DNA of 64,000 bases. Source: Kiritimatiellia bacterium (GTDB taxonomy: Bacteria; Verrucomicrobiota; Kiritimatiellia; RFP12; UBA1067). The stretch lies in assembly GCA_045540275.1 (NCBI GenBank), contig JAZQGX010000291.1, positions 30,088 through 94,087 on the forward strand, given 5' to 3'. The notes under the pieces were generated by a model. That model was not told the DNA's origin and made no database searches. It saw only the letters and a program-made list of their open reading frames with translations. The translations under genes and the position numbers were made by a program. Positions 53-64,000 of this stretch are shown piece after piece (position 1 is the stretch's first letter; each line of letters opens with the position of its first letter).

Positions 53-2473
53 TCATGGCTGCCGATCTCCGCTGCGCAAAACACCCTCGGCAAAGCGAAC
101 CGCTTCCATCGCATCCGCCGCATACGCATCCGAACCGATCCTTCTGGCATACTCGGCATTGAGCACGGCACCGCCGACAACGACCTTGCAGCCAGGTGCC
201 TCTTTGCGCAATAAGGCAATCGTCTCCTCCATTGCCGGAACCGTCGTTGTCATCAGCGCACTCAATCCCACCAACGGAACCTTGTGCTTGACCACATAAT
301 CAACAATCTCACCCGCCGCCACATCCTTGCCGAGATCCGCCACCGCGAAGCCGTAGTTTTCCAGCATCATTTTGACAATGTTTTTTCCAATGTCATGAAT
401 ATCCCCCTTCACGGTGGCCACGACGATTTCAACATCCGCGCCTTCCGCCGAACCATTCCCGACCACCGCCGCCTTGATCTGCTCAAATGCGTGCTTCGCC
501 GCTTCGGCACTCATCAGCAGCTGCGGCAGATAAACGCGCTTTGCTTCAAAACCGGAGCCTACCGCATCCAGCGCCGGCACGATTTCACCGCGCACGATGT
601 CGATTGGAGCGACATTCTCCAAAAGCAACTTCGCGGCAAGTTCCGCCGCACGGTCACAGAGTCCGCATGCTATTGCGCCCCTCAGCGTCTTCGAATCGGC
701 GGACGCTGGCGATGCGACGCCCGGCGGCACCGTAACCGACGTCTCCTGAAACGACGAAGCCGCAGCGATGTATCCGGCGCAATTGGCATCCTTTGCCGCC
801 AGTGCCCGAAACGCATGGTAGGTCTTCATCATTGCCTGCGAGAACGGATTCATTATCGCCGCCGACAATCCCCGTTCTAGCGCCATGGCGAAAAACACCG
901 AATTGACAGTGTCGCGCGAAGGCAGTCCGAATGACACGTTCGAAACCCCGAGCGAGGTGCAGCAACCCAGTTCGTCGCGAATGCGAGAAAGAGCTCCGAG
1001 GGTGATTTCCGCCGCATGCGCGTCTGCACTGACCGCCATCGTCAGCGTGTCAAAAATTATATCCCTCCTGTCTATTCCGTAGCGCTTGGCGGTTTCCACG
1101 ATTCGGCGCGCGATTTCCACGCGACCCTCAACCGTCCCAGGTATCCCGTTCTCGTCGAGCGTCAATGCTATCACCGAGCCGCCGTATTTTTTCACCAGCG
1201 GGAACACCAACTCCATGCTCTCCTGTTTGCCGCTGACGGAATTTATCAGCGCTTTCCCGTTGTAGATGCGCAGCGCCCTCTCCATCGCCTCCGGAGAGGA
1301 GGTGTCGATCTGAAGCGGCACATCAACGACGTTCTGAAGTTCTCGCACCAGCAACTCAAGCACCTCGCCCTCGTCAATACCGGGCATTCCGGCATTCACG
1401 TCCAGCACCGCCGCACCGCAGGCGCACTGCCTGATTCCCTCGTCGAGAACATAGGCGACGTCACGTTCTGCCAATGCCTGCTTGAGCCGCTTCTTGCCCG
1501 TCGGATTGATTCGCTCCCCGATCAGTATCGGTTCATTGCCGAATTCAACCGTTCGCGTCCTTGAAGATATCACGGTCGAATTTTTCCGCGCCGCTTCGCA
1601 CGGCTTCAATCCGCCCACCGCCGCAACGGTTTTGCAGATAAACTCAGGCGAGCTCCCGCAGCAGCCCCCGACAATCCGCACGCCTTTTTCAACCGCTGTC
1701 TTGATTTCGGCGGCGAATTCTACGGGAGTGACATCAAAGATGGTTTTCCCGTTCTCCTCGCGCGGAAGCCCGGCGTTGGGCTTGAACAACACAGGACGCG
1801 ATGTACAGGCAAGGATCCTTTCAACCACGTTGCACAGCTCGCGTGGTCCAAGCGAACAGTTTGCGCCGATTGCATCGGCTCCCATCGCATCGAGCATCAC
1901 CGCCATCGCCTCCGGCGTACTGCCGTTCATCATGCGCCCGTCGCTTCCGTATGCGCAAGATACCAGCACCGGCAGAGAACTGTTCTCCTTCGCCGCCAGC
2001 AACGCCGCTTTCGTCTCAAGACTGTCGCCCATCGTCTCGATCAGTATCAGATCCGCTCCGCACGAAACCCCCAGCCGAACACTTTGCGCGAATATTTTGA
2101 CCGCCTCCTCAAAATCAAGGTCGCCGAAGGGCTTGAGCAGTTTTCCCGTAGGCCCGATATCCAGCGCCACGAATTTTTTCTGTCCTCCGGCCGAGGATTC
2201 GCGGGCTGCAAACGCATTAGCGAAAGCCGCCTCGACCGTCCGCCGCAAATCGCCTTTTGAATATTTGAGAAGGTTGGCCCCGAAGGTGTTGGTCCCAATC
2301 ACATTCGAGCCTGCATCGTAATAACGGCGATGAATGTCGATAACCACCTCGGGGCGGGACAAATTCCAGTTTTCCGGCATCTCACCCGGACGCAGTCCCG
2401 CCCGCTGCAGCATTGTACCCATCGCTCCATCCAATACGACCAACTCTTTTTTTAAAAAATCAGAAAACATCAT
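53..2473 (-). CDS. metH: Cobalamin-dependent methionine synthase, short form (Hcy-binding, pterin-binding and B12-binding modules; no activation domain)
   Basis: 806-aa ORF. It has N-terminal VLDGAMGTMLQ and a GGCCG zinc-site motif of the homocysteine S-methyltransferase module. The B12-binding DxHxxG (DIHDIGKN) and SALMTTT lie near the C-terminus. Confidence 0.9.
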   Translation of the reverse strand: MMFSDFLKKELVVLDGAMGTMLQRAGLRPGEMPENWNLSRPEVVIDIHRRYYDAGSNVIGTNTFGANLLKYSKGDLRRTVEAAFANAFAARESSAGGQKKFVALDIGPTGKLLKPFGDLDFEEAVKIFAQSVRLGVSCGADLILIETMGDSLETKAALLAAKENSSLPVLVSCAYGSDGRMMNGSTPEAMAVMLDAMGADAIGANCSLGPRELCNVVERILACTSRPVLFKPNAGLPREENGKTIFDVTPVEFAAEIKTAVEKGVRIVGGCCGSSPEFICKTVAAVGGLKPCEAARKNSTVISSRTRTVEFGNEPILIGERINPTGKKRLKQALAERDVAYVLDEGIRQCACGAAVLDVNAGMPGIDEGEVLELLVRELQNVVDVPLQIDTSSPEAMERALRIYNGKALINSVSGKQESMELVFPLVKKYGGSVIALTLDENGIPGTVEGRVEIARRIVETAKRYGIDRRDIIFDTLTMAVSADAHAAEITLGALSRIRDELGCCTSLGVSNVSFGLPSRDTVNSVFFAMALERGLSAAIMNPFSQAMMKTYHAFRALAAKDANCAGYIAAASSFQETSVTVPPGVASPASADSKTLRGAIACGLCDRAAELAAKLLLENVAPIDIVRGEIVPALDAVGSGFEAKRVYLPQLLMSAEAAKHAFEQIKAAVVGNGSAEGADVEIVVATVKGDIHDIGKNIVKMMLENYGFAVADLGKDVAAGEIVDYVVKHKVPLVGLSALMTTTVPAMEETIALLRKEAPGCKVVVGGAVLNAEYARRIGSDAYAADAMEAVRFAEGVLRSGDRQP

Positions 2474-2477
2474 ATCA

Positions 2478-3086
2478 CTATTCCTCTTTCGCGGCGCCGA
2501 TTATACCGGCCACCGCCGTAACAGATTTGGAAGGCGACATCGACATACTGTCATTCAAGGTCAACCCGATTGCCCGCGGGCAATCAAGAACTGAAAACAG
2601 CTCTTTCTGGAAGGCTAGCGGCAAATCCCCGTAGCCGGGACTGAATCTCGGGGTAAGCCGGAACTCCTGCGCCTGCCGCGCACAGAAAAAATCACACAAC
2701 GACTCAATCCGCTCGATTCCTATCGCCTGCAGCATCAATGCCCGCGACGGCGACACTCTCCCGTATTTCGAAATGAGCAGATCCATGCCGATGCCGAGCG
2801 TCGCCGAAAAAAGCAGGATCCCGTCGCACGGCTCGAGCAGACGCGCCAGCGATGACGAGACGACCGACAGGAGACCAAACTGGCACCGCGAACCGACGCA
2901 GCGACAAGGCAATCTGCGCCAACAGACCCGATAGGACAACACCGGCAGCGCCTCATCCAACGCGTCCTCAAGAAGCGCCCCGATCATGCCGGCGGAATCT
3001 GCGCTTCCGGCATAGCGAAGAATCGTTCTACGCTCCGGTGGGGGCGGCTCGAAAGTTGCGGTGTATAACGGCGTCGTATCCATCAT
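2478..3086 (-). CDS. Stand-alone methionine synthase activation (AdoMet-binding) domain protein
   Basis: 202-aa ORF between metF (4-nt overlap with the metF stop region) and metH (4-nt gap). Size and position fit the split-off reactivation module found beside short MetH. Assignment is by context and weak sequence recall. Confidence 0.6.
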   Translation of the reverse strand: MMDTTPLYTATFEPPPPERRTILRYAGSADSAGMIGALLEDALDEALPVLSYRVCWRRLPCRCVGSRCQFGLLSVVSSSLARLLEPCDGILLFSATLGIGMDLLISKYGRVSPSRALMLQAIGIERIESLCDFFCARQAQEFRLTPRFSPGYGDLPLAFQKELFSVLDCPRAIGLTLNDSMSMSPSKSVTAVAGIIGAAKEE

Positions 3087-3967
3087 TTCCCAATTATCTC
3101 GGAAACATTGCGCAGCACCGCGGCGGCGACATCCGGTTTGTTCATAGTGTAGACATGCACATTGGTTATGCCGTTGGCGTACAGATCGATAATCTGATCG
3201 GTGGCATACGCAATTCCCGCCTGCTTCATCGCTGCGGGGTTTGCCCCGAAACGATCGACCAGGCTCTTGAAACGTTGCGGCATAAATGAACCGGACAACT
3301 TGATTGCCCTCGCCACCTGATTAGCGTTGGTTATCGGCATAACTCCCGGCACCACCGGCACAGTGATTCCCGCTTCCCTGATTTTGTAGAGAAAGTTGTA
3401 TAGCAGATTGTTGTCGAAGAACATCTGTGTGGTGAGAAACGAGCAACCTGCGTCCACCTTCTCCTTCAAGTGCCGGATATCATCCTCTTGATTTGCGCTT
3501 TCGGGATGGATTTCAGGATAGCATGCCGCACCTATGCAAAATCCATGTCCGGACTCGACAAGTTCCCGAACCAGTTCTACCGCATGGAGGTATTCCCACT
3601 TTCCATGATCTGCCCCGATACCGCTATCGGGGATGTCGCCGCGTAGAGCCATCACGTTTTTCACCCCGCTGGCCGCAATCTCGGCGATGCGCTCGCCAAC
3701 CGTTCTGCGGCTTGATGAAACACAGGTCAGATGAGCCAGCGTCGGCACCGCATAACGCTCCTTGATGTTGCGTGCAATTTCCAGCGTATAGCGGCTTGTG
3801 CCACCACCTGCGCCGTAGGTCACGCTTACGAATGACGGCTCTAACGCTGCTATTGACTCGGTTGCACTTTTCACACTTTCAAAAACGCTTTCCGTTTTCG
3901 GAGGGAACACCTCAAACGAAAGCGACGGACGCCCTCGCGCCAGAATCTCGGAAATTTTCATGCTCAA
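3083..3967 (-). CDS. metF: 5,10-methylenetetrahydrofolate reductase
   Basis: 294-aa ORF with SFEVFPPKT near the N-terminus and overall MetF-like sequence. It is in an operon with metH. Confidence 0.9.
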   Translation of the reverse strand: MSMKISEILARGRPSLSFEVFPPKTESVFESVKSATESIAALEPSFVSVTYGAGGGTSRYTLEIARNIKERYAVPTLAHLTCVSSSRRTVGERIAEIAASGVKNVMALRGDIPDSGIGADHGKWEYLHAVELVRELVESGHGFCIGAACYPEIHPESANQEDDIRHLKEKVDAGCSFLTTQMFFDNNLLYNFLYKIREAGITVPVVPGVMPITNANQVARAIKLSGSFMPQRFKSLVDRFGANPAAMKQAGIAYATDQIIDLYANGITNVHVYTMNKPDVAAAVLRNVSEIIGK

Positions 3968-4272
3968 TACTCCATATCGCCGTCCGGGAACAGTTCATTG
4001 AGAATCTGTTCGGCCGGTGTATATGCCTTTTTCGAATTGTTGCACTCTTTGCAGCAGGGTACGCAATTTCCTCTGGTTGAGCGTCCACCCCGCGAAACCG
4101 GAATGACATGATCCAGCGTCAGTTCGCCGGGGGGAGTCGTCTTTCCGCAATAGTGGCACACCCCTTCAGCGATCCGATCTTTCCACCATTGCGTCTTTCT
4201 GAGTTCCCGGGCCTTCTCGCGTTCGCGTTTAACATGCTGGGAATCTGCGCATCCTTCCGTAAATTCACCCAT
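3964..4272 (-). CDS. Small HNH endonuclease-family protein
   Basis: CHYCG...LTLDHVIPVSRGG...NCVPCCKECNNSK forms an HNH/zinc-finger motif. I place the start at ATG 4272, because the ORF-track start at 4398 would overlap nadD by 134 nt. Confidence 0.7.
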   Translation of the reverse strand: MGEFTEGCADSQHVKREREKARELRKTQWWKDRIAEGVCHYCGKTTPPGELTLDHVIPVSRGGRSTRGNCVPCCKECNNSKKAYTPAEQILNELFPDGDMEY

Positions 4273-13850: not shown

Positions 13851-15553
13851 AGTTTACTTCCTTTCAAAAATTTTTCCTTGGCGGAAAATGCGGACGCCAG
13901 CATTTCGGCGGCGTGTTTCTCCACCACGCTTGTCATTCCTCGCCCGCCCAGCATGCGGGCGATTTCGTCAATGCGCTCCTTCTCCCCGAGTCTTCGGACC
14001 GCGGTTCGGGTTCTCCCCGAGTCTTCGGATTTGGAAACCGAAAAATGCGTAGTGCCGAACACCGCAGTCTGCGGGAGGTGTGTTATGCAAATCACCTGAT
14101 GCCCGGCGGCGACGCGCGCCAATTTCAAACCGATGGCACTCCCGACCTCGCCGCCGATGTTGGAATCAATCTCGTCGAACACTAGCACCGGAATCGAATC
14201 GTGTGCGGAAAGCACGGTCTTGGCTGCCAGTGCCACACGCGCGATTTCGCCGCTAGAAGCGATCGCCTTCAGCGGACGCGCCGTCTCGCCGTTGTTGGGA
14301 GCGAACGAAAAATCAACCGCGTCAAGCCCCAGCGGCCCCGGTTCAATCCGCTTCATACCGACCCCGAACTCGCTTCTGGCGAATCCCAGGTCGCGCAACT
14401 CTCCGGTAATTTCGCGAGCGAGCCGCACCGCAGCCTTTGCCCTCGCCGCCGACAGCTTCTCGCCGCACTCCAACACTTTCTTCTCAAGCGCGCCAACCGA
14501 CGTTTTCAGCTCGTCCAGCCGGGCGGAGCGCGATTCCAATTCATCAAGGCGGCTTTTTTTCGCGGCGAAATTCTTAAGCACATCCTCCAGTGTCGGTCCA
14601 TACTTGCGCTTGAGCCGCTCGACCAATGTTACGCGCTCGTCCAGCGCCTGCAGATCCTCTTCAGCGCCATCGGCGGAACTGATGCGTCCGCGGATGGCGG
14701 AATACAACTCCTGCACTTGGAGAGTGATGCCGAGAGCGTCGTTTCGCCACGCTTCCGCATCGCGCAGTACGGATGACAGATCGGACAGATGGCGCTGAAC
14801 CTTGGTCATCAATTCAAAAACCGCGCCTTCGCCGTCGCTGAGCAGATTGCAAAGGGCGTTTCCGTCCTCAACTATGCGTTCGGCATTGGCCGCTTCATGA
14901 TGACGCTCGATGAGAGCTTCACCGTCGGCCTCGCTGAGGGCGGCGCGTTCAAGTTCGTCGACGGCATAGGAAAGCATCTCGATCTCGGCGGCGACCGTCG
15001 CCGGATCGCCGCAGAGCGACTCGATTTTTTTCTCCGCCGACCGCAACTCGTCGCGACAGGCGCGGTATTCATCGAGCAGCTTGCGGCAGGATCCGTAAGC
15101 ATCAAGAAAGCGGCATTGATAGTCGTTTGACAGCAACGACTGATGGTCGTACGGTCCGTGAATGTCAAGCAGCACCTCGCCGAGACGACGTAATGTCGTC
15201 GCGGACACCGAAACGTCGTTGACAAAGCATTTGCCTGCACCGGAAACATTGACGGTCCGTCTCACCAAAAGTGCTCCGTCATCAAGGCGGGGGATGTCCA
15301 GCTCATCCAATATCGCCTCGGCGGAGGATTGGGCAGATCCGGAAAGTTCGAACTCGGCCTCGACCGAAGACTGCTTTGCACCGTCGCGCACCGCGGATTT
15401 CTCGGCCCTTCCGCCAAGTACCAAACCGAGCGCCCCCATCAGCACGGATTTTCCGGCGCCGGTTTCACCGGTTATGATGTTAAGCGAAGCGCCAAACTCG
15501 ATTTCCACCGATTCGACAATTGCAAAATTGCATACGCGCAGCCGCTTGAGCAT
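13847..15553 (-). CDS. recN: DNA repair protein RecN
   Basis: MLKRLRVCNFAIVE...ITGETGAGKS Walker A, a long central coiled coil, a C-terminal signature/Walker B region (LVFDEIDSNIGG); 568 aa. Confidence 0.9.
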   Translation of the reverse strand: MLKRLRVCNFAIVESVEIEFGASLNIITGETGAGKSVLMGALGLVLGGRAEKSAVRDGAKQSSVEAEFELSGSAQSSAEAILDELDIPRLDDGALLVRRTVNVSGAGKCFVNDVSVSATTLRRLGEVLLDIHGPYDHQSLLSNDYQCRFLDAYGSCRKLLDEYRACRDELRSAEKKIESLCGDPATVAAEIEMLSYAVDELERAALSEADGEALIERHHEAANAERIVEDGNALCNLLSDGEGAVFELMTKVQRHLSDLSSVLRDAEAWRNDALGITLQVQELYSAIRGRISSADGAEEDLQALDERVTLVERLKRKYGPTLEDVLKNFAAKKSRLDELESRSARLDELKTSVGALEKKVLECGEKLSAARAKAAVRLAREITGELRDLGFARSEFGVGMKRIEPGPLGLDAVDFSFAPNNGETARPLKAIASSGEIARVALAAKTVLSAHDSIPVLVFDEIDSNIGGEVGSAIGLKLARVAAGHQVICITHLPQTAVFGTTHFSVSKSEDSGRTRTAVRRLGEKERIDEIARMLGGRGMTSVVEKHAAEMLASAFSAKEKFLKGSKL

Positions 15554-55411: not shown

Positions 55412-55460
55412 GAGCTGAGAGCTTGGAGCTGAAAGCTTGGAGCTTGGAGCTTAGAGCTTA
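55412..55460. repeat. Seven tandem copies of a 7-nt unit (GAGCTKR)
   Basis: The units are gagctga gagcttg gagctga aagcttg gagcttg gagctta gagctta. The last unit contains the adhE TAA stop. The array fills the adhE-kinase spacer. Confidence 0.9.
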
Positions 55461-58094
55461 GACATTCTTATGCTTACCATAGTAGGCGTTAAGATACATC
55501 TGCTTGATTTCCTTCATCATCGGATAACGCGGATTGGCGCCCGTGCACTGATCGTCGAAAGCCTGCTCGGTCATTTCGTCGAGACGTGCGAGGAAGTCCT
55601 CCTCATTCGGGACGTAATCGCGGATCGTGGGCTTGATGCCGACGCGCGCCTTGAGATCCCTGATGGCGGTGATGAAGTTCTCAAACTGCTCGGCCTTGTT
55701 GCGGCCGCGAATGCCGAGAGCCGTGGCGATTTCGAGGTACCGCTCAAGACCGTGAGGATGGCCGTACTGAGAGAACGTGCCCATCTTGCGCGGCACGGGA
55801 TCGGCGTTGAAGCGAAGCACTTCTTCCATCATAAGCGCGTTGGCGATACCGTGAGGAATGTGGTGGAACGCACCGAGCTTGTGAGCCATCGAGTGCATTA
55901 CGCCGAGGAACGCATTGGCGAAAGCCATACCGGCGATCGTGGCGGCGTTGGCCATCTTCTCACGGGCGACGGGATCGGCGCGCTTTTCAACGGCCGCGTC
56001 ATAGCAGGCGGGGAGATACGTGAAGATCGTCTGGAGCGCACGAATGGCAAGACCGTCGGTATAGTCCGTCGCGAGCATCGAAGCGTAAGCCTCGAGAGCG
56101 TGGGAGACAGCGTCGATACCCGAGGCGCTCGTAAGGCCGGGAGGCGCGGACATCTGCATATCGGCGTCGACAATCGCCATCGTAGGCATAAGCTCGTAGT
56201 CGGCGAGAGGATACTTGGTCCCCGTCGTTTCGTCGGTGATGACGGCGAACGGAGTTACTTCGGAGCCTGTGCCGGCCGAAGTCGGGATGCAGACGAACGA
56301 CGCCTTAACACCCATCTTCGGGAAGCGATAGACGCGCTTGCGGATATCCATGAAGCGCATCGCCATATCGTTGAAGTCGGCCTCGGGGTGTTCATAGAGA
56401 ACCCACATGATCTTCGCCGCGTCCATCGCGCTTCCGCCGCCAACGGCGATGATGACGTCGGGATTGAAGCCGGCCATCAGCTTGGCGCCCTCCTTAGCGC
56501 AAGCGAGCGTCGGATCAGGCGCAACGTTCGAGAAAGTCGTGAACATGATGCCCTGGGCCGCGAGAGACTTCTCAATCGGCTTGGTGTAGCCGTTGGCGTA
56601 GAGGAAGGTGTCGGTTACGATGAACGCTCGCTTCTTCTGCATTTCTTCACCGAGTTCACGCAGCGCGAGCGAGAGGCAGCCTTTCTTCTGGTAGATTTTC
56701 TCCGGCGCGCGGAACCACAACATGTTTTCTCTTCTCATAGCAACCGTCTTGATATTGATAAGATGTTTAACGCCTACGTTCTCCGAAACGGAATTCCCGC
56801 CCCAGCTGCCGCAACCGAGAGTGAGCGACGGGGCGAGCTGGAAGTTGTAGATATCGCCGATGCCGCCCTGCGAGCTCGGGGTATTGACGAGAATGCGGCA
56901 GGTTTTCATGCGGGAAGCGAACTCGGCGACCTTTTCCTTTTCGTTGATCTCGTCGAGATAGATGGAGCTCGTGTGGCCGTAGCCGCCATCGGCGACGAGT
57001 TTCTCCGCCTTCTGGAAGGCGTCCTCGATATCCTTGGCGCGATACATCGCAAGCACGGAAGAGAGCTTTTCGTGGGCGAACTCTTCGGAGAGTTCAACGC
57101 TCTCGACTTCACCAATAAGAATCTTCGCGTCGTCGTCGACCTTAAATCCGGCGAGCGCGGCAATCGTGACCGGCTTCTGGCCGACGATCTTGGCGTTAAG
57201 AGCGCCGTTGATGAGAATCGTCTTGCGGGTCTTCTCGAGCTCGGCGTTGCTGAGGAGGTGGCAGCCCATCTTGCGGAAAAGAGCCTTGACCTCGTCGTAG
57301 ACGCTGTCGAGAACGATCACGCTCTGCTCCGAGGCGCAGATCATACCGTTGTCGAAAGTCTTGGAGTGGATGATCGAGCTGACGGCGAGAGTCAAGTCGG
57401 CCGTCTCGTCGATGATGGCGGGGGTATTGCCGGCACCGACGCCGAGAGCGGGAGTACCCGAGCTGTAGGCGGCCTTGACCATGCCGGGTCCGCCAGTTGC
57501 GAGAATAAGATCGCTCTCCTTCATGAGGAGGTTCGTCTTGGGGAGCGACGGAGCGTCGATCCAGCCGATGATCTCCTTGGGTGCACCAGCTTCGACGGCT
57601 GCGTCGAGAACGATCTTCGCCGCGGCAATCGTCGCGTTCTTCGCACGCGGGTGGGGGCTGATGACGACGCCGTTGCGGGTCTTAAGAGCGATAAGGGTCT
57701 TGAAGATGGCGGTCGAAGTCGGGTTTGTCGTAGGAATGACAGCTCCGATAACGCCGACAGGCTCGGCGATCTTCTCAATACCGGCGGCCTCGTCGCGGTC
57801 GATCACTCCGCAGGTTTTGACATCCTTGAAAGCGTTGTAGATAAATTCGCTGGCGTAGTGGTTCTTGATGATCTTATCTTCTACAACGCCCATACCGGTT
57901 TCTTCGACAGCCTGCTTCGCGAGCGGGATTCGGGCGCGGTTGGCGGCGAGTGAAGCCGCCTTGAAGATCTCATCTACCTTTTCCTGAGAATATGTCGCGT
58001 AGATTTTCTGCGCCGCTCTAACGCGCGCAATGGTTTCCTGAAGTTCCGCGAGTCCGTCGTCCTGAACGGGAGCGGGAATGTTTGCGCTTTGCAT
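55458..58094 (-). CDS. adhE: Bifunctional acetaldehyde-CoA / alcohol dehydrogenase
   Basis: 878 aa. The N-terminal ALDH half has an active-site region, and the C-terminal iron-ADH half has GGGSAMDAAK and His-rich metal motifs. Confidence 0.95.
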   Translation of the reverse strand: MQSANIPAPVQDDGLAELQETIARVRAAQKIYATYSQEKVDEIFKAASLAANRARIPLAKQAVEETGMGVVEDKIIKNHYASEFIYNAFKDVKTCGVIDRDEAAGIEKIAEPVGVIGAVIPTTNPTSTAIFKTLIALKTRNGVVISPHPRAKNATIAAAKIVLDAAVEAGAPKEIIGWIDAPSLPKTNLLMKESDLILATGGPGMVKAAYSSGTPALGVGAGNTPAIIDETADLTLAVSSIIHSKTFDNGMICASEQSVIVLDSVYDEVKALFRKMGCHLLSNAELEKTRKTILINGALNAKIVGQKPVTIAALAGFKVDDDAKILIGEVESVELSEEFAHEKLSSVLAMYRAKDIEDAFQKAEKLVADGGYGHTSSIYLDEINEKEKVAEFASRMKTCRILVNTPSSQGGIGDIYNFQLAPSLTLGCGSWGGNSVSENVGVKHLINIKTVAMRRENMLWFRAPEKIYQKKGCLSLALRELGEEMQKKRAFIVTDTFLYANGYTKPIEKSLAAQGIMFTTFSNVAPDPTLACAKEGAKLMAGFNPDVIIAVGGGSAMDAAKIMWVLYEHPEADFNDMAMRFMDIRKRVYRFPKMGVKASFVCIPTSAGTGSEVTPFAVITDETTGTKYPLADYELMPTMAIVDADMQMSAPPGLTSASGIDAVSHALEAYASMLATDYTDGLAIRALQTIFTYLPACYDAAVEKRADPVAREKMANAATIAGMAFANAFLGVMHSMAHKLGAFHHIPHGIANALMMEEVLRFNADPVPRKMGTFSQYGHPHGLERYLEIATALGIRGRNKAEQFENFITAIRDLKARVGIKPTIRDYVPNEEDFLARLDEMTEQAFDDQCTGANPRYPMMKEIKQMYLNAYYGKHKNV

Positions 58095-58155
58095 TTTCTT
58101 TATCTTTCCTCTTTTTTACTGTCCGAAGAACCCTTCTTCAGACGAATTGGCGCGT

Positions 58156-58184
58156 AGTATAGCACTTTTTATATCGGTAATCAA
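58156..58184 (-). promoter_or_regulatory. Sigma-70-like promoter for adhE
   Basis: On the minus strand, TTGATT, then 17 nt, then TATACT, about 60 nt upstream of the adhE ATG. An adjacent 19-bp palindrome lies at 58191-58209. Confidence 0.45.
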
Positions 58185-59008
58185 GTAGCGATATTAAAAT
58201 ATTTAATATTTTTTTATCATTGACAAACACACGCTTAATTCACGCATCTAATTCACGTATCATCTCTGCAAGACTATTGAATAGTGCAGTTGTTTTAATG
58301 TTGCCAGTGCATCAAAACACATCGCAAGTCATTTCTTCTAAACCTTCTAACCTCCAACCAACTCCCAACACTTCCCCATTCCTCATTGGTATTGAAAACT
58401 GGTACTGGCAACACTTTCACATCCTGTCCACCGTAGCCTTGGCGAAGGTGGATGGCAACATTCCCTAGCGTCCACAAATCAACACTCATCTCCACAAATC
58501 TGATTTATGAGAATTGGTGTCACTTTGTGGATAAGATTTTCGTGCCCCTCTACATCACTTCATCTGCACACGGAATGTAAACATAAAAAATAGGTCGTTT
58601 GATGGCTCGCGCTAAGTTCGCCAAGTCCGCGAAGTTTTTGCGGCGGAGCTGCAACAAAAGCTGTTGTGGCGGCGACACTAAAACGCCGCACAAGTGGTGC
58701 TACACGAAAAAGGTTGGAAAGTTTAGTAGATTTTGAAGGTTTAGGGGTAGTTCGTATTCGAGAACCATTCCCAGTTCCCTATTCCCCGTTCCCCTCATTT
58801 TCGTGTTATTTCGTGACGGCGAAGCCGTTTCGTGTTTGCGGCAGGTGACGCCCCCCCGATAGGGTGAATCGGAGATGGACGCACAGCCGAGGCGAAGCCT
58901 CAAGGTGTGTGCGGACAACTACGATTCAATCGCGCATTGCCACGATTCGTCACCGCCGCAGATTTTGTGGTCGCGCAGAGCGCACAAACGGCGCGAGGTG
59001 CGCGAAAC

Positions 59009-59036
59009 AAAAAAGCCCACCGTTGGTGAGCTTTTT
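59009..59036 (-). terminator. Rho-independent terminator after the 59-64 kb operon
   Basis: Hairpin AGCCCACC-gtt-GGTGAGCT with one mismatch, flanked by an A-run and T5. On the minus strand it is followed by TTTTTTGT. It lies about 55 nt after the stop at 59089. Confidence 0.5.
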
Positions 59037-59088
59037 AATTAATGTTGCAAATAAAACGCAATCCCGCTTTCAGATGTTTTATACTGAA

Positions 59089-59700
59089 CTAAAAGACTTC
59101 TAATTCCATAGGGGGTTCGACACCAAGAATATCAAATAACATTTCACAATCTGTCGGCGACAAATTATTAGCTTTAGCCAACATCAATTCCTCTTGCCAA
59201 TCAGGTGAAATACGTAGATACTTGCGAGCATAAAAATCGAACTTGATATATGCAAGAAAGTAATGAAATACCCCACGATCTTCTACCATCAATGCTGCAT
59301 TGACATATTCAATGGCTTTTTTAATATTCGCCATAGGAGTAAGAAATGCTTTCTTGCCCTTCAGCAACGAAACTGCAGCATAGAAGGATGCTTCAGGATT
59401 GTCTAAATTCTCTTCTATTGCTTCCTCAAACCGTTGCAATGCCTTGTCGTAGAGTTTCAGCTTGAGATAGCATCCGCCGATGGTGAATTTCATGTCGGCG
59501 GCAAGTTCTGGCGACACGCCGTCCCTCAAGTCTTTATCCAGCGCACGTGACAACTTGTTGAGCGAAGGCAAGTCCTGTGCATATACGCTGTTGAAACTTG
59601 TAATAACAATTGCCTTGCCACAACAAGGACACTCTGACATGGCTGGCGCAAGTGCCTCACAACATCCGCTACACTTCATGTCAACGACTTTTACTGCCAT
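59089..59700 (-). CDS. Zinc-ribbon protein with TPR-like helical repeats
   Basis: N-terminal CSGCC...CPCCG zinc ribbon, followed by helical repeats (GGCYLKLKLYDKALQRFEEAIEENLDNPEASFYAAVSLL). Confidence 0.55.
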   Translation of the reverse strand: MAVKVVDMKCSGCCEALAPAMSECPCCGKAIVITSFNSVYAQDLPSLNKLSRALDKDLRDGVSPELAADMKFTIGGCYLKLKLYDKALQRFEEAIEENLDNPEASFYAAVSLLKGKKAFLTPMANIKKAIEYVNAALMVEDRGVFHYFLAYIKFDFYARKYLRISPDWQEELMLAKANNLSPTDCEMLFDILGVEPPMELEVF

Positions 59701-59736
59701 TTTATACTGCCTTTCTTTGTTTGTTGTTTACGTCAA

Positions 59737-60426
59737 TTACTTGTAAAGCGCTATTTGTCGTTCACGTTCGCGAACGAGATCAATACCTTCCCCGGCAATG
59801 GTTTCCAGACTCTTAGGATCTCCGTTCCCAATAGCAGATTCTATGTTCGCGACATGCGAACGTATCTGGTCTTCAAGCATGGAGACCTGGGGGATTGTCC
59901 GTATGGACGCGCCAAAGACCGCATCGCGAAAACGCTCTATGCTTCGTCGCATATCCCTCGACGGCACACGTTGCATGGCAAGTTCAAGCCTACCAACGCA
60001 ATCCTTTATGAAGAATGCGTCACGTCGATTACGCTGTTCGTTTGCCTCCGTATGAGACTCCGCATTCATCAGCAACAAATAATGGAAAATATAAAATCCG
60101 ATAATGATGGCATGAACAATAACAGGGAAAGTGATGGTGGAATTGTTTATAAGAATCAATATCACACCCCAAATCAAAGACGCCGTGAAATAACCGTACG
60201 CGACCATCATCTTCGGATAGACATGCACAACGCTCCCGCTTGAATCAAATCGGTTGAAGGAAAGCGAAGACACGCAGAACAACAGATATGACAGGTGGAT
60301 TCCTACATACGACACCCATCTCGCAGGCGTATGGTTCTCGATCATGTTGAAATACAAAACGTTGAACACCAATATTACAACGAGATAGAGCGCAATTTTC
60401 GCGATTGAATTCTTTTGCATTTTCAA
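59737..60426 (-). CDS. Hypothetical membrane protein (about 4 TM) with helical cytoplasmic C-terminal domain
   Basis: Four hydrophobic spans in the first 125 aa are followed by a charged helical tail. I recognise no family. Confidence 0.55.
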   Translation of the reverse strand: MKMQKNSIAKIALYLVVILVFNVLYFNMIENHTPARWVSYVGIHLSYLLFCVSSLSFNRFDSSGSVVHVYPKMMVAYGYFTASLIWGVILILINNSTITFPVIVHAIIIGFYIFHYLLLMNAESHTEANEQRNRRDAFFIKDCVGRLELAMQRVPSRDMRRSIERFRDAVFGASIRTIPQVSMLEDQIRSHVANIESAIGNGDPKSLETIAGEGIDLVRERERQIALYK

Positions 60427-60437
60427 CTCCTTTCCTG

Positions 60438-61694
60438 TCAGCAGACCTTAGTTCCGCAGTTCGGGCAGAACTTGAATCCGGCCGGGACATTCGCTCCACA
60501 GCCTGAACACGTAGCACTCTGCGGCAGAGGCTGTCCGCAATTCCCACAGAATTTCCCACTTCCGGCAATCTCGCCGCAATGCGGACACACGGTTTGTGGA
60601 GCAGATGCAGACGCGGGAGTTGCCGTCTGCTGCGGCGATGCCTTGGGGGCGAAACGCGATGGTCCAGAAGGAAAAGATGGCGGTTGTTGCTGCGAGGGAG
60701 CTTGCATAGGCGAGAACATGGCGGCAGCCATGTTGCCCATCACGCCACCAGCAACCATCCCCATGCCCAATCCCGCACCAGTTGCCGCAATGCCACCTGC
60801 ACCGGGGTTATTCACCATGTCTCTCATTATGTCCCGTGCTTGTATTCTCTGCCAATGTTCCCCTTGTATATTTATCTGCTGCATCTCACCAAGTGCCTTT
60901 TCTGCCATCTCCATCTGGTGAAGGCCAAAAGAAGCACGCCTCTTTTTGTAATCCTTGAACTCATCGGTTTCAAGAACATTCAATGTCGTCAGGTAAAAGT
61001 TCTCAAGGAGCATCCCGAATTTTCTAAATCCGTCGTCAAGAATGGTTTCTAATTTTTTGGCAATGTCAGGAAGGAACTTCTGCACGCCAAAAATGCCATT
61101 TTCCACACTTTCTATTACGGCTGCTATGTTGCTCTTTACGAAAGCATCCAGTTGAGGACGGATGACCTCCTTATTTACTTCTTCCTTAGTCCGAGGCTGA
61201 TCCCATCTTATTGCCGTTCCTTGAGAGTCCTTTGACAAGAAAAGCTTGGGGTCTTGAATGCTTACTGTATAATTTGCCTGTGCCTGAAGTTCTACGGGAA
61301 CATTTATAAAATCTCCACCCGGAAGAAATGGCGGCATGTGCATTTCCACTGGAATGGGAGTCTGTGTTCCCCACCGAAGATTTGTCATTGGCTTTTTGTT
61401 GATAAAGAAAACCGTATACTTGTATGAGTTCTCTCCTCCGGAGAAAGACGCACGCAATCTGTCAAGAAAAGGATAGTTGCTGGTCGTAAGCGTGTAACGC
61501 CCCCCCGAAAACGATTCAACCAGTTTCCCATTATCGAGAAGCAAGGCGACATCATCCTCGTTTACCTGCAAGATACTGCCGTTGCGGAAATCCTCAGTTG
61601 GATGCCGCCATATCGGATATGCTCCAGTTCCCTGCTCACGTGCAATGACTTGATATGCGTTGTGAAGGTTTTTTATGCTTGAGAAGAGTCCCAT
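60438..61694 (-). CDS. SPFH-domain protein (COG4260 / YdjI-like) with C-terminal double zinc ribbon
   Basis: The N-terminus MGLFSSIK...IWRHP...NGSILQVNEDDVALLLDNGK is typical of the 'virion core protein-like' SPFH family. A Gly/Met/Pro-rich linker precedes CPHCG...CGNCG and CSGCG...CPNCG. Confidence 0.8.
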   Translation of the reverse strand: MGLFSSIKNLHNAYQVIAREQGTGAYPIWRHPTEDFRNGSILQVNEDDVALLLDNGKLVESFSGGRYTLTTSNYPFLDRLRASFSGGENSYKYTVFFINKKPMTNLRWGTQTPIPVEMHMPPFLPGGDFINVPVELQAQANYTVSIQDPKLFLSKDSQGTAIRWDQPRTKEEVNKEVIRPQLDAFVKSNIAAVIESVENGIFGVQKFLPDIAKKLETILDDGFRKFGMLLENFYLTTLNVLETDEFKDYKKRRASFGLHQMEMAEKALGEMQQINIQGEHWQRIQARDIMRDMVNNPGAGGIAATGAGLGMGMVAGGVMGNMAAAMFSPMQAPSQQQPPSFPSGPSRFAPKASPQQTATPASASAPQTVCPHCGEIAGSGKFCGNCGQPLPQSATCSGCGANVPAGFKFCPNCGTKVC

Positions 61695-61728
61695 CTCGTT
61701 TCCCTTTCTGTCTGTTGACCGTTAAAAG

Positions 61729-63513
61729 TCATCTTTCGTTTACCCGTTGCCTAAACCATGCATCAGCCACAGCGTCGCGTTGACCTGGACGATCGTTTGC
61801 CTCCATGCTCGGATCGGTCGGCGGCGGAACATCACCGGAACCCATGCCCGCTCCATTATCAGACGCTTCCGCGAGTCTGTCTTTCAACCCGCCGCCTGAG
61901 GTGCCATCGTCTGACGCCTCCTTGTAATCACCTAGCTTGTCGGTGTCTGGCACGACAATCTGGCGCGCGCCGCCTTCACATTCCACGACATCCGTTCCAT
62001 CGGAATCTCTAGCAGGGGCCACATCACTGACATACGCCGTTGTCGGCTCTTCGACTTCGCGATGCGAAACCGTGTCGGCAGAGCGTTCTCCAATCACGGA
62101 ACCATCCTCTGGGTTCCTTTCATATTCAGGCAGCGCGTATTTATCTTTGACAGCATCCTCATCTATGTTTCCAGACTCATCCATTACACCCTGTTTTTTC
62201 AATTCGTCATCAGTCGTGTAATAATTGCTTCCCTCGTTGAAACGGTGGTCGCTATCCTCAACCCTTGCCAATTCTGTCCCCTCGTCCAATGTAACCTTCT
62301 CCCATCCCTCGCCGGAGGATATAGTATCCATTGCTTTGTCATATAATTCACGGTGTCGGTCATCGTCTTGCCCAGCTTCGGCCACATCATTTTTCATCAA
62401 GTCGTCATACATCTCATTGGCGACCTGAGCTTCACGATAAACCTCGTCAGTGACTTCTTCCGATGGTTCTACAAGCGATTCGAACTTCCCCGAATCATTC
62501 TCCTCCCTCTCGTCATTTGATTCTGGCGGCATTTCCGTCTCCTCCAAGGCCGCCGCATCTTCTGTCGCCAATTCTTCTTGGGGGGAGGCATCAACGGACT
62601 CGTCCAACGGTTCTGCAGTTTCGTCATCAGCAGATTCTTGCGTTTCTTGTGACTCCGACTCCTGCTCTGCCTGCTCTTGCGCCTCCCGTGCTTCACGGTC
62701 GGCTTGTTCCTGCGCCTCGCGCTCCGCCGCCTCCGCCTTGGCCTGTTCTTCTTCTGCCTCTCGCAGGGCTTCTTCGCCCGCCTTCTCCGCCTCGAGCGCG
62801 GCGCGTTCCGCATCTTCGCTGGCCGATTCCGCTTCCTTCGCCTGCTCTGCCGCCGCCTCTGCCGCCTGTTCTGAGACTTCCTGCGCTTGTTCGGATGCCG
62901 CGTCTGCCGCACCCGCAGCATCGCCTGCAGCATCAGCAAGCGCTTGTGCGTCACTTGCAGCATCCTTGGCCTCGTTCACCGCGGCATCCACGGCGGCGGC
63001 ATCCGTCATATCAACATCTTTAAGCCGTTCCACCGCCTGCTCTGCATCTCGCGCCGCCGCCGCATCGTCCGCCGTGTCGGAAGCCGCATCGGCCTTCTCG
63101 TCAGTCGCATCCTCGACTTTCTCGGCCTCTTCAACCGCCTCTTCGGCAGCAGCTACATCCTCTTCAATCGCCGCCTCTTCCTCCTGAACCTCTTTCTGAA
63201 AATCTTCCGCTATCGCATCTTCCGATGCCCCGTCTTCAATCGGTGCGTCATCGTCTGCCGACACATCCTCCGCAAGCGGCTCAGACTCTGCGGCGCCATC
63301 ATCAGACCAGGAGTCAGACATGTCGGAGCTCTCTTCGCTCAACTCGGAAAATGAATCTTGTGAATCGTCATACGAAGCGTCAGATGAAGAATCCGAGAAA
63401 AAGTCGCCTGAAGAGTCGGACGAGGTGGCAGATGAAAAATCAGAAGAGCTATCCGACGACACATCGGATGAGGTGTCAACACTTGAAGAGCTGTCGTCCG
63501 TATCGTCGCACAT
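61729..63513 (-). CDS. Hyper-acidic low-complexity protein with globular C-terminal domain
   Basis: 594-aa ORF with AGGAGG 9 nt upstream and a 3-nt gap to the upstream ORF. It has a Ser/Asp-rich region, then an Ala/Glu-rich region, then about 200 aa of ordinary-complexity sequence. Confidence 0.65.
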   Translation of the reverse strand: MCDDTDDSSSSVDTSSDVSSDSSSDFSSATSSDSSGDFFSDSSSDASYDDSQDSFSELSEESSDMSDSWSDDGAAESEPLAEDVSADDDAPIEDGASEDAIAEDFQKEVQEEEAAIEEDVAAAEEAVEEAEKVEDATDEKADAASDTADDAAAARDAEQAVERLKDVDMTDAAAVDAAVNEAKDAASDAQALADAAGDAAGAADAASEQAQEVSEQAAEAAAEQAKEAESASEDAERAALEAEKAGEEALREAEEEQAKAEAAEREAQEQADREAREAQEQAEQESESQETQESADDETAEPLDESVDASPQEELATEDAAALEETEMPPESNDEREENDSGKFESLVEPSEEVTDEVYREAQVANEMYDDLMKNDVAEAGQDDDRHRELYDKAMDTISSGEGWEKVTLDEGTELARVEDSDHRFNEGSNYYTTDDELKKQGVMDESGNIDEDAVKDKYALPEYERNPEDGSVIGERSADTVSHREVEEPTTAYVSDVAPARDSDGTDVVECEGGARQIVVPDTDKLGDYKEASDDGTSGGGLKDRLAEASDNGAGMGSGDVPPPTDPSMEANDRPGQRDAVADAWFRQRVNER

Positions 63514-63516
63514 GGG

Positions 63517-64000
63517 TTACACCCTCCTTTCTAGCGTTGCACGTATCGTTGCATCTGAAAGTTTTATGGAGGTTTCGTATTTGATCTTTCGCAAAAAATG
63601 CATCCTTGCGCATTTCGCAAGCGGCTTCGTAAGCGGTTCATCATTTAACTCTGCGGCAATCAGCCGGGAGATATGGGAGTACACGTCCCTCAATTTCTTC
63701 TGTTCACTCGTTTGCAACGTGAAGTTGCGGGAATAGATGCGCCTTGCGATTTCACGGGCAAGGGCACGGCAGCTGAAGTCGCATCTGCCTCCGCACTCCG
63801 CCGCATACGCACACTCGGGGTACGGCATGAGCATCTTCTCCTTACCGTTCCAATAGGTCGTGCGTTCCTTGATGGATTCGTCTGAGAGGGAAATCGAAAT
63901 GTTGTTGGCCGCTCGATAGTCCTCGGTCTTTACCTCTTCTGGCTCTTCAAGACGGTCGAAGAAAAGCATAGCCTCGCCAGGACGCAGACGCGCCAAGCGT
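63517..64000 (-). CDS. C-terminal part of a larger protein, possibly a HerA/FtsK-like NTPase (5' end outside the window)
   Basis: The frame stays open to the window edge. GEAMLFFDRLEEPEEVKTEDY resembles the post-Walker-B region of DUF87/HerA-type ATPases. It is followed by a Cys-rich segment, PECAYAAECGGRCDFSC. Confidence 0.4.
   Translation of the reverse strand, partial: RLARLRPGEAMLFFDRLEEPEEVKTEDYRAANNISISLSDESIKERTTYWNGKEKMLMPYPECAYAAECGGRCDFSCRALAREIARRIYSRNFTLQTSEQKKLRDVYSHISRLIAAELNDEPLTKPLAKCARMHFLRKIKYETSIKLSDATIRATLERRV

Follow-up and report, generated by a model that had tools for sequence, protein, structure and literature searches.

A mobile, cross-phylum gene cassette pairing a HerA-like ATPase with acidic-leader proteins and an SPFH membrane-associated gene set

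Introduction

What function unites five closely spaced minus-strand genes at the 3′ edge of a 64,000-nucleotide stretch of Kiritimatiellia DNA (contig JAZQGX010000291.1, positions 30,088 to 94,087), here called the window and numbered 1-64,000 throughout? An initial annotation of this operon described a truncated NTPase-like gene followed by genes for a hyper-acidic protein, an SPFH protein with a zinc ribbon, a four-transmembrane (4-TM) protein and a further zinc-ribbon protein, and read the set as a PspA-less, rearranged relative of the ydjGHI membrane-stress module of Bacillus subtilis to which the first two genes had been added. We find that these genes are the last 4.9 kb, at the 3′ end, of one copy of a mobile cassette that crosses phyla and consists of two separable modules, one comprising a HerA-like ATPase and its acidic cargo protein and the other a membrane-associated gene set, and that the invariant dyad of ATPase and acidic protein, not membrane-stress repair, is the organizing principle of the locus.

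The cassette is widespread, horizontally transferred and apparently undescribed. Full-text searches of the literature outside paywalled papers found no account of this gene combination, and PADLOC, PHROGs, NCBIfam and Pfam name individual domains of the cassette without naming the combination, in line with the initial annotation, which could match it to no described system. We group the cassette with the HerA-effector and polymorphic-toxin conflict systems, and suggest that through it bacteria may handle or deliver toxins in a new way.

Results

The five open reading frames (ORFs), designated A to E (Table 1), are separated by spacers of 3, 34, 11 and 36 nt in the ORF list, exactly as first claimed. 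Gene A is open at its 5′ end, the TTG listed at 63996 being an edge artefact; as had been noted, its start lies beyond the window, and in relatives the full gene has 898 codons. Relatives of the operon are referred to by locus number (L001 and higher). With protein C as query, a scan of species-representative genomes identified three close ones (L001, L002 and L003), in metagenome-assembled genomes (MAGs) of Kiritimatiellae and Victivallales from the ruminant gut. These loci contain all five genes in the same order together with a sixth conserved gene, F1, ahead of the ATPase gene, and flanking genes differ in each of the four genomes.

Table 1. Coordinates, within the window, of the cassette genes, the parts of gene B and the closing hairpin
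Feature	Position	Strand	Description
Gene A	63517 to window edge (64000)	-	3′ part, last 160 codons of HerA/DUF87-family ATPase gene of ~898 codons
Gene B	61729-63513	-	594 aa, hyper-acidic
B leader, residues 1 to ~330	62524-63513	-	Polyanionic, Ser/Asp-rich then Ala/Glu-rich; begins MCDDTDDSSSSVDTSSD
B cargo domain, residues ~345-535	61909-62481	-	Conserved globular domain, no Pfam match
B C-terminal tail and stop codon	61729-61908	-	GGGLKDRLAEAS ... QRDAVADAW
Gene C	60438-61694	-	418 aa, SPFH (Band_7_1) and double zinc ribbon
Gene D	59737-60426	-	229 aa, 4-TM protein
Gene E	59089-59700	-	203 aa, zinc ribbon and TPR
Intrinsic-terminator-like hairpin	59010-59036	-	~50 nt past the stop codon of E

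The distribution of the ATPase extends far beyond these close relatives. At E ≤ 1e-5 we recovered 1,889 homologs, spread over Bacillota, Bacteroidota, Planctomycetota, Verrucomicrobiota and Spirochaetia, with a full-length identity of about 60% in Oscillospiraceae, Faecousia, Paludibacter, Planctomycetes, Opitutaceae and Spirochaetia, and more than 541 metagenome contigs, of gut, rumen and termite-gut origin, contain the gene. A prophage origin of the set was considered and rejected: PHROGs returned nothing structural, the ATPase occurs on one contig of the 2.9 million in IMG/VR and there is no close phage record with it. Ninety loci were then analyzed by calling ORFs and clustering them into families (F1 and higher numbers), with counts taken over loci with enough sequence; because the 90 loci are the best matches to one HerA clade, the resulting co-occurrence figures describe that clade only. 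Within it, the neighbourhood check proposed with the initial annotation shows that the genes travel together: the SPFH gene is present in 40 of the 40 HerA loci with at least 5 kb downstream, the 4-TM gene in 37 of 40, F1 or an alternative family, F8, in 49 of 53, and an acidic gene directly after HerA in 73 of the 80 assessable loci. Since the same genes recur in order on dozens of independent contigs, the gene set is beyond chance.

In its canonical order the cassette runs from a tyrosine integrase and a helix-turn-helix (HTH) gene, present in some loci, through the zinc-ribbon-TPR gene (F3, the family of E), a transmembrane (TM) protein gene (F1), a TM-fused YidD-like gene (F5), HerA, one or more acidic protein genes and one or more small ORFs to the SPFH gene (F2, the family of C) and the 4-TM gene (F4, the family of D). 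The clade of the window is a permuted variant, in which E, the first cassette gene in most clades, stands last, at the 3′ end, and the YidD-like gene is absent. The five genes of the initial annotation are all part of the unit, which extends beyond them to at least six genes in the window's copy and to seven in the commonest form.

The product of A is 75-76% identical to the C-termini of its full-length orthologs in L001-L003. These orthologs match DUF87 in Pfam (2.5e-11), the HerA models of PADLOC (1e-16 to 1e-08, one of them at 2.3e-16) and mad8 (1e-18 to 1e-20). The best NCBIfam match is the DNA-translocating ATPase CedD, at 86 bits against a curated cut-off of 600, and a further one, far below its cut-off, is to the 'anti-phage-associated helicase HerA'; the closest solved relative is Sulfolobus HerA (PDB 4d2i, 2.1e-08), and FtsK_SpoIIIE matches at only 1e-04, under its cut-off. 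Judged by these profiles, the NTPase-like gene that had been seen joined to the module encodes a HerA/DUF87-family P-loop ATPase of the HerA/FtsK superfamily, of about 895-898 aa. It has a single P-loop domain at residues ~390-760, and an alignment of 13 sequences from several phyla shows a nearly invariant core (~404-760) and four invariant cysteines (C796, C802, C806 and C863), so that the Cys-rich segment noticed in the partial ORF is real. The C-terminal domain, which is the part inside the window, is basic (isoelectric point, pI, ~9) and is the sole basic domain of the protein. Relative to the HerA proteins of the SIR2-HerA and DUF4297-HerA systems, the cassette ATPase has an additional N-terminal region of ~390 aa and an additional C-terminal Cys-cluster domain of ~130 aa.

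The slot behind the ATPase is defined by position and by composition. Almost every gene following HerA starts no more than ~30 nt from the HerA stop codon, with an overlap of 4 nt in L001 and L003, and B itself starts 3 nt past the stop codon of A. The acidic proteins share across loci the leader signature M-x-[DE]-[DE]-[FY]-x-E-[ST]-V-D-T-S-S-D, and their leaders, of 100-450 residues and 25-60% Asp and Glu, are often tandemly repeated. Behind the leader the proteins diverge. A Pfam census of the C-termini of 64 cargo proteins assigned 13 to HExxH peptidase-like domains (DUF6782, SprT-like), seven to TNT, four to Peptidase_C39_2-like domains, two to Gln_amidase (glutamine deamidase) and one each to WHH and colicin DNase, and found neither SIR2 nor DUF4297 among them; the effector types encoded in sister loci are TNT NADase, glutamine deamidase, WHH/colicin DNase, GH-E nuclease, HExxH peptidase and papain-like proteins. 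Small ORFs stand between cargo and SPFH genes in many loci; one is Imm33 (8.7e-18), and four of their families (F11, F15, F19 and F21) switch together with the cargo type. The ORFs of this interval also include a second leader-bearing protein, ending in a GH-E nuclease, and two or three leader-bearing cargo proteins may share one locus, as in L110, L118 and L140. At the level of the family, the combination of a conserved leader, swappable toxins and adjacent small ORFs matches the architecture of polymorphic toxin-immunity systems.

Many long cargo proteins also have a conserved module of ~35 aa, YMNxHNYGxDDFAxYSQDPxWRxLxxxxFPDYELP, which stands once or twice between the leader and the toxin domain and has no Pfam match; examples are found in L082 (~14700-15000), L161 and L097 (cargo family F6).

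Protein B conforms to this pattern in its leader. It contains 31% Asp and Glu, with a net charge of -143 and a pI of 4.05, and the charge of the leader amounts to -15 to -26 per 66 residues. Both the leader and the C-terminal tail are conserved with the B proteins of L001 and L003 (41-50% BLASTP identity over the last 60-74 residues for the tail, which is conserved among cargo proteins of the Planctomycetota-Verrucomicrobiota-Chlamydiota, or PVC, clade), and the core between them is not alignable, a different domain occupying its place in those loci. The core of B bears the motifs GTELA[RK]V, YYTTD, LP, SHR, [VI]AP and GGG[RT]Q.[VI][VI]PDT and has no match in Pfam or PADLOC. A word-indexed homolog search with this region returned nothing, and an exhaustive HMMER search surfaced eight relatives. 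One of them, P0149, is 69% identical and is encoded between HerA and SPFH-DZR genes in L175; P0150 contains the B-type domain in tandem with the L001-type domain, and both of these proteins have acidic leaders. The B-type domain is also present in P0152, P0153 and P0155, the last of which is located in L173, a different HerA-like locus, and P0151, P0154 and P0156 match the tail of B, whose GGLKxxLxxA-like motifs recur in L173 proteins. On these alignments, the core of B is a real, recurring and shuffled domain.

By eye, the order of motifs in the B C-terminus resembles that of the TNT NADases, an assignment that we rejected because every test of it failed: Pfam found no TNT match, BLASTP against a TNT-bearing cargo protein found no similarity, a jackhmmer TNT profile missed B and hhalign gave a probability of 0.5% for the domain against TNT. 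A single-sequence AlphaFold2 (AF2) model of the C-terminus was unusable, with a predicted local distance difference test (pLDDT) score of 51. The window copy belongs to the family, and its cargo cannot be called a toxin, since the TNT likeness is statistically unsupported and no immunity gene follows. The earlier description of B as toxin-like is therefore borne out for the slot, which holds toxin domains in sister loci, and not for B itself, in which no such domain is found.

The remaining genes form the membrane-associated set. In Pfam, protein C matches Band_7_1 (PF13421, 1.3e-22) and then a C-terminal double zinc ribbon (PF12773, 3.3e-09), with a Gly/Ala/Met-rich linker between them; it is soluble, has no membrane anchor of its own and is 51-65% identical to its orthologs in L001-L003. 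An exact-protein lookup of C found no record, and in most other clades a SHOCT domain replaces the zinc ribbon. Protein D, 68-81% identical to its orthologs in the same three loci, has no Pfam match. Its AF2 model, acceptable at a pLDDT of 75.9 and built on a 23-sequence alignment, is all-helical, with helices at residues 3-28, 34-55, 66-92 and 99-153 and a C-terminal bundle, a predicted arrangement in which four TM helices are accompanied by one very long helix and, on the cytoplasmic side, a bundle of three; conserved polar TM residues include N22, H32, W37 and H44. Foldseek comparison of this model with the PDB gave nothing below E = 0.1, and generic helical bundles and G-protein-coupled receptors above it. 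Protein E, 81-88% identical to its counterparts in L001-L003 and member of a highly conserved family found in 52 loci, has an N-terminal CxxC...CxxC zinc ribbon, so that two products of the operon carry zinc ribbons as originally stated, and continues as a TPR protein without a TM segment; its TPR matches in Pfam lie under the gathering cut-offs (5.7e-05), with LcrH/SycD at 1.1e-05.

Three further families complete this set in relatives. The F1 protein, encoded upstream of the ATPase and hence outside the window, has an N-terminal TM segment and an unassigned domain, and F5, the TM-fused YidD-like protein (PF01809, 6.1e-15), is added in most clades. F8, a protein of ~407 aa found in 17 loci (e.g. 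L141 6567-7790) and absent from the window, takes the place of E and F1 in some cassettes. It is YdjG-like by hhalign (probability 99.1%, 235 columns), and its C-terminal 2-TM region matches SLATT_1 at 28.6 bits, just over the Pfam cut-off of 26.3. SLATT_1 is an effector domain of CBASS-type systems that is predicted to form pores; YdjG combines a pair of zinc ribbons with an NTF2-like domain and a TM segment.

These proteins allow the proposed kinship with ydjGHI to be delimited. The architecture of YdjI, as given by Ravi 2024 (PMC11237479), is a Band_7_1 SPFH domain with a C-terminal zinc ribbon, so the initial assignment of C to the YdjI type stands. The same paper describes YdjH as a TPM-domain protein, and PMC8581546 reports that soluble YdjI is recruited to the membrane by YdjG and YdjH. 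More distant SPFH-DZR genes often lie beside a YdjG-like zinc-ribbon protein and a TPM-domain YdjH-like protein (TPM_phosphatase, 4.4e-30), neighbourhoods that match the ydjGHI descriptions in these two sources. In the cassette, the identification of D as YdjH was rejected, as D has no Pfam match and hhalign gave a probability of 0.4% for its family against the TPM family, and that of E as YdjG was rejected because the two have only a 33-column zinc ribbon in common in hhalign, after which E continues as TPR. No PspA match was found among the five window products or in the neighbourhoods of loci with Pfam-annotated genes, which agrees with the description of the module as PspA-less. The presence of F8 in place of E and F1 in some sister loci shows that there is a distant evolutionary link with ydjGHI modules. 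The "rearranged relative" thus holds for C and, distantly, for the module through F8, and does not hold for D or E; judged from profile comparisons, the link is real for the SPFH protein and remote for the module, and falls short of membership. The hhalign, Pfam and PHROGs comparisons accordingly place the set neither in a standard pspA-ydjGHI locus nor in a prophage module.

The two modules also occur apart. On the Priestia megaterium plasmid pN447-3.1 (NZ_CP064271.1; L167 7596-14069), a gene for a 963-aa HerA-like protein, 34% identical to that of the cassette, is followed by one for a 1,135-aa protein that consists of ~25 acidic repeats (SEKLDDLEQKETDQLTDTDTELQDD...) and ends in a helical region. 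The annotation of both products is hypothetical protein, and the plasmid locus lacks the SPFH set. An NCBIfam 'serine-rich protein' model contains a HerA-matching region at positions 731-1098 of 1163. In L173 (132-8828), a different HerA-like operon encodes an M48 peptidase and an ATPase of 1,062 aa, which shares the IPFLVIEPAK motif and is rich in Ser/Thr over an internal stretch. Its other products are a protein of 629 aa with TM segments at the C-terminus, a coiled-coil lipoprotein of 410 aa and proteins of 173 and 275 aa, the latter with the cargo domain of B. Because of the Priestia pair, the 'serine-rich protein' model and the L173 HerA-like protein, we consider the HerA-acidic dyad to be older than the membrane set. 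Conversely, L168-L170 have F1-like, SPFH-DZR, 4-TM and zinc-ribbon-TPR genes without HerA or an acidic gene, and Phascolarctobacterium has a trio of SPFH, E-like and F1-like genes without HerA. The Priestia plasmid, from a cultured organism, is a possible entry point for experiments. In the reduced loci (L168 7471-11327, L169, L170 and L013 10001-12464), only ~560 nt are found where the HerA and acidic genes would be.

The mobility of the cassette shows in its context. Relaxase, MobC, integrase, resolvase and HTH genes flank many copies; among the 33 loci that extend at least 4.5 kb upstream, 18 lack a nearby integrase of the F7 family. Neighbours of defence type comprise a NACHT protein in L082 and a Fic protein with an OLD-like ATPase in L171. 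In L001, a sheep-rectum Kiritimatiellae MAG, the interval 703-4186 immediately preceding the cassette has matches to JetD_C/DUF2399, DUF2397 and DUF2398/MksE; because these Wadjet- or condensin-like anti-plasmid genes adjoin the cassette, its setting there looks like a defence island.

Discussion

We propose, with a probability of roughly 45%, that the HerA ring acts on the polyanionic leader and passes the effector on to an SPFH-organized membrane platform for export. In such a scheme, a hexameric ATPase that normally grips polyanionic DNA in its pore would recognize and thread the DNA-like acidic leader. The leader might dock on the basic Cys-cluster domain at the C-terminus, the portion of the ATPase that the window encodes. 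The TPR protein E could act as chaperone or adaptor, and D and F1 may recruit the SPFH protein C, a step suggested by the precedent of YdjG and YdjH recruiting YdjI (PMC8581546). The SPFH protein would then organize the membrane site at which the effector is translocated or released against competitors. In its strongest form, this proposal makes the cassette a new protein-translocation machine, in which a HerA of the DNA-pump type threads a DNA-mimicking leader and exports or injects toxins through the SPFH platform in both monoderm and diderm gut bacteria; this version we regard as doubtful.

Several observations weigh against export. Every step of the translocation of the cargo is one that we infer. 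Neither the ATPase nor the cargo proteins show a TM segment, and the latter show no signal peptide, when the sequences are read by eye without a prediction tool, and the fold search with D gave no hint of a channel. No outer-membrane component was seen in the loci, and monoderm and diderm hosts have one and the same gene set, two features that an intracellular or inner-membrane function fits better than a complete secretion machine does. All HerA relatives of solved structure either act on DNA or serve as scaffolds for intracellular defence effectors. The window cargo has no recognizable toxin domain, and the SPFH gene begins 34 nt behind it with no immunity gene between the two; L001 and L003 lack an immunity gene as well. 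In L141-146, TNT-bearing cargo likewise has no ORF before the SPFH gene. Finally, the co-occurrence counts derive from the best matches to a single HerA clade.

Several of these points favour the main rival, an intracellular abortive-infection system against phages or plasmids of the type of SIR2-HerA and DUF4297-HerA. The effector would here be held inactive on the HerA ring, with the leader lying in or on the pore and mimicking DNA as a pseudo-substrate, until invading DNA, sensed at the SPFH/4-TM membrane platform, displaced the leader and the freed NADase, nuclease or protease killed or arrested the cell. We judge this rather unlikely, and take it seriously: the ATPase matches PADLOC HerA, mad8 and the NCBIfam anti-phage HerA, all solved HerA relatives are DNA-directed, one gene set without an outer-membrane part serves both cell types, the neighbours in L001 (Wadjet-like), L082 and L171 are those of defence islands, an immunity gene is missing from the window, L001 and L003, and the swapping of NADases and nucleases parallels the SIR2 or nuclease partners of HerA described in PMC9503650. 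It is opposed by candidate immunity ORFs, including a bona fide Imm33, after many effectors, as is typical of delivered polymorphic toxins, by the several leader-bearing cargo proteins per ATPase, which resemble multiple substrates of one machine, and by the effector families themselves, which are those of secreted polymorphic toxins in PMC3482391. PADLOC, moreover, matches only the ATPase and has no model for B, C, D or E. The cassette and the SIR2-HerA and DUF4297-HerA systems are alike in setting a HerA/DUF87 P-loop ATPase beside an interchangeable NADase or nuclease effector, within mobile loci in island-like contexts. They differ in that the cassette ATPase is only distantly related, below curated cut-offs, that its effectors have a polyanionic leader and are often followed by candidate immunity ORFs, and that its four to five partners (SPFH, 4-TM, zinc-ribbon-TPR, F1 and YidD-like proteins) have no counterpart in those systems.

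DNA-transfer and pure membrane-stress roles are less likely than either export or abortive infection. Extreme negative charge is a hallmark of DNA-mimic proteins, and the cassette might accordingly serve DNA handling by an integrative mobilizable element, with the HerA-like protein as a membrane-docked DNA translocase (cf. TraB, FtsK and Ced) and the acidic protein as an anti-restriction or decoy DNA mimic made or transferred with the DNA. The CedD match, the relaxase, MobC, integrase and resolvase genes around many copies, and a type IV secretion system (T4SS) coupling-protein gene near the reduced module in L168 are in keeping with such a role. We nonetheless find it improbable: the CedD score is far below its cut-off, more than half of the loci assessed upstream have no F7 integrase nearby, no transfer genes lie between the cassette and adhE in the window, and toxin and immunity domains in the cargo slot would be unexpected of an anti-restriction decoy. 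Slightly more improbable still is the model of the initial annotation, an envelope surveillance or repair module with the ATPase and acidic protein as add-ons. The YdjI architecture of C (PMC11237479), the YdjG-like F8 and the occurrence of the membrane module alone in L168-170 and Phascolarctobacterium speak for it; the absence of a TPM/YdjH homolog and of PspA, the restriction of the likeness between E and YdjG to the zinc ribbon, and a D protein that matches nothing speak against it. Within the HerA clade, moreover, the SPFH set is never found without the ATPase-cargo dyad (40 of 40), and the cassette, mobile and with toxin domains, is unlike a housekeeping stress operon.

Comparison with other known systems helps to place the export proposal. 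Like pspA-ydjGHI (samGHI) of B. subtilis, the cassette sets a soluble Band_7_1 SPFH protein with a zinc ribbon beside small membrane and zinc-ribbon proteins, in some sister loci including a true YdjG-like protein, and it differs in being mobile and tied to a HerA ATPase and polymorphic effectors. SPFH-NfeD pairs (YqiK/YuaG with YuaF) likewise place an SPFH gene directly beside a small multi-pass membrane partner; in contrast, D has no NfeD match in Pfam and an all-helical model, and C has no anchor of its own. With the polymorphic toxins, as covered in PMC3482391, the cassette family shares a conserved N-terminal region with swappable toxins, Imm33-type neighbours and several cargo proteins per locus, and the TNT/Ntox40, glutamine deamidase, WHH, GH-E and colicin DNase families are all catalogued there among secreted polymorphic toxins. 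The N-terminal region of the cassette proteins is, however, a low-complexity polyanionic leader and not WXG/LXG, PAAR or VENN, and among the trafficking modes catalogued in that work (Zhang et al. 2012, PMC3482391) there is no acidic leader and no such ATPase. Type VII secretion system (T7SS) LXG toxins with the FtsK-like EssC also have an FtsK/HerA-superfamily ATPase encoded near the cargo; EssC/EccC is multi-domain with TM and FHA, unlike the cassette ATPase with its single P-loop domain, no FHA and no TM segment by eye. No WXG100, WXG, LXG, EsaA/EssA/EssB-type or other known secretion components were found in the annotated neighbourhoods.

Should the export proposal prove true, a mobile cassette that is highly conserved, and very common in bacteria of the gut, rumen and termite gut, would have gone undescribed, and a HerA/FtsK-type ring ATPase, toxins with a polyanionic, DNA-like leader and a flotillin-like SPFH scaffold would be newly connected. 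It would provide a concrete hypothesis for a nucleic-acid pump acting on protein, suggest a new role for the poorly understood Band_7_1/YdjI family and open a new source of toxin/immunity pairs in the microbiome. If the cassette instead serves intracellular defence, a DNA-mimic leader as HerA pseudo-substrate would constitute a new regulatory principle.

Additional features of the window

The hairpin and T-run first noticed downstream of E are present, as a 12-bp stem followed by UUUUUU that is stable on RNA folding (-17.4 kcal/mol, z = -2.5); a simple consensus scan did not list it, and its sequence is kept in L001. The reported ~1 kb of non-coding DNA between the cassette and adhE (55458-58094) measures 994 nt. 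The GC content of the module, 50.6%, is lower than that of the remainder of the window (54.1%) and of adhE (58%); the description of its genes as AT-richer than their flanks is correct for E (43%), D (45%) and C (49%) and incorrect for B (56%). Rfam gave nothing credible in 57900-64000, and the window has no tRNA genes. Long antisense ORFs inside B (up to 245 aa; e.g. 62450-63187 on the plus strand) are compositional shadows of a low-complexity acidic gene, and for the same compositional reason simple ORF calling overlooked the cargo gene in L002, L083 and L085.

Between E and adhE, 480-630 nt downstream of E, lies a non-coding element of ~150 nt (58460-58612) that has no Rfam match and is 87% identical to L001 12963-13117, in the equivalent place there; the sequence between this element and the terminator is unrelated in the two loci. 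Inside it are the window's only perfect DnaA-box nonamer (TTATCCACA, 58526-58534, minus strand) and two TCCACAAAT repeats. The element could be a cassette end, a regulatory site or a small RNA.

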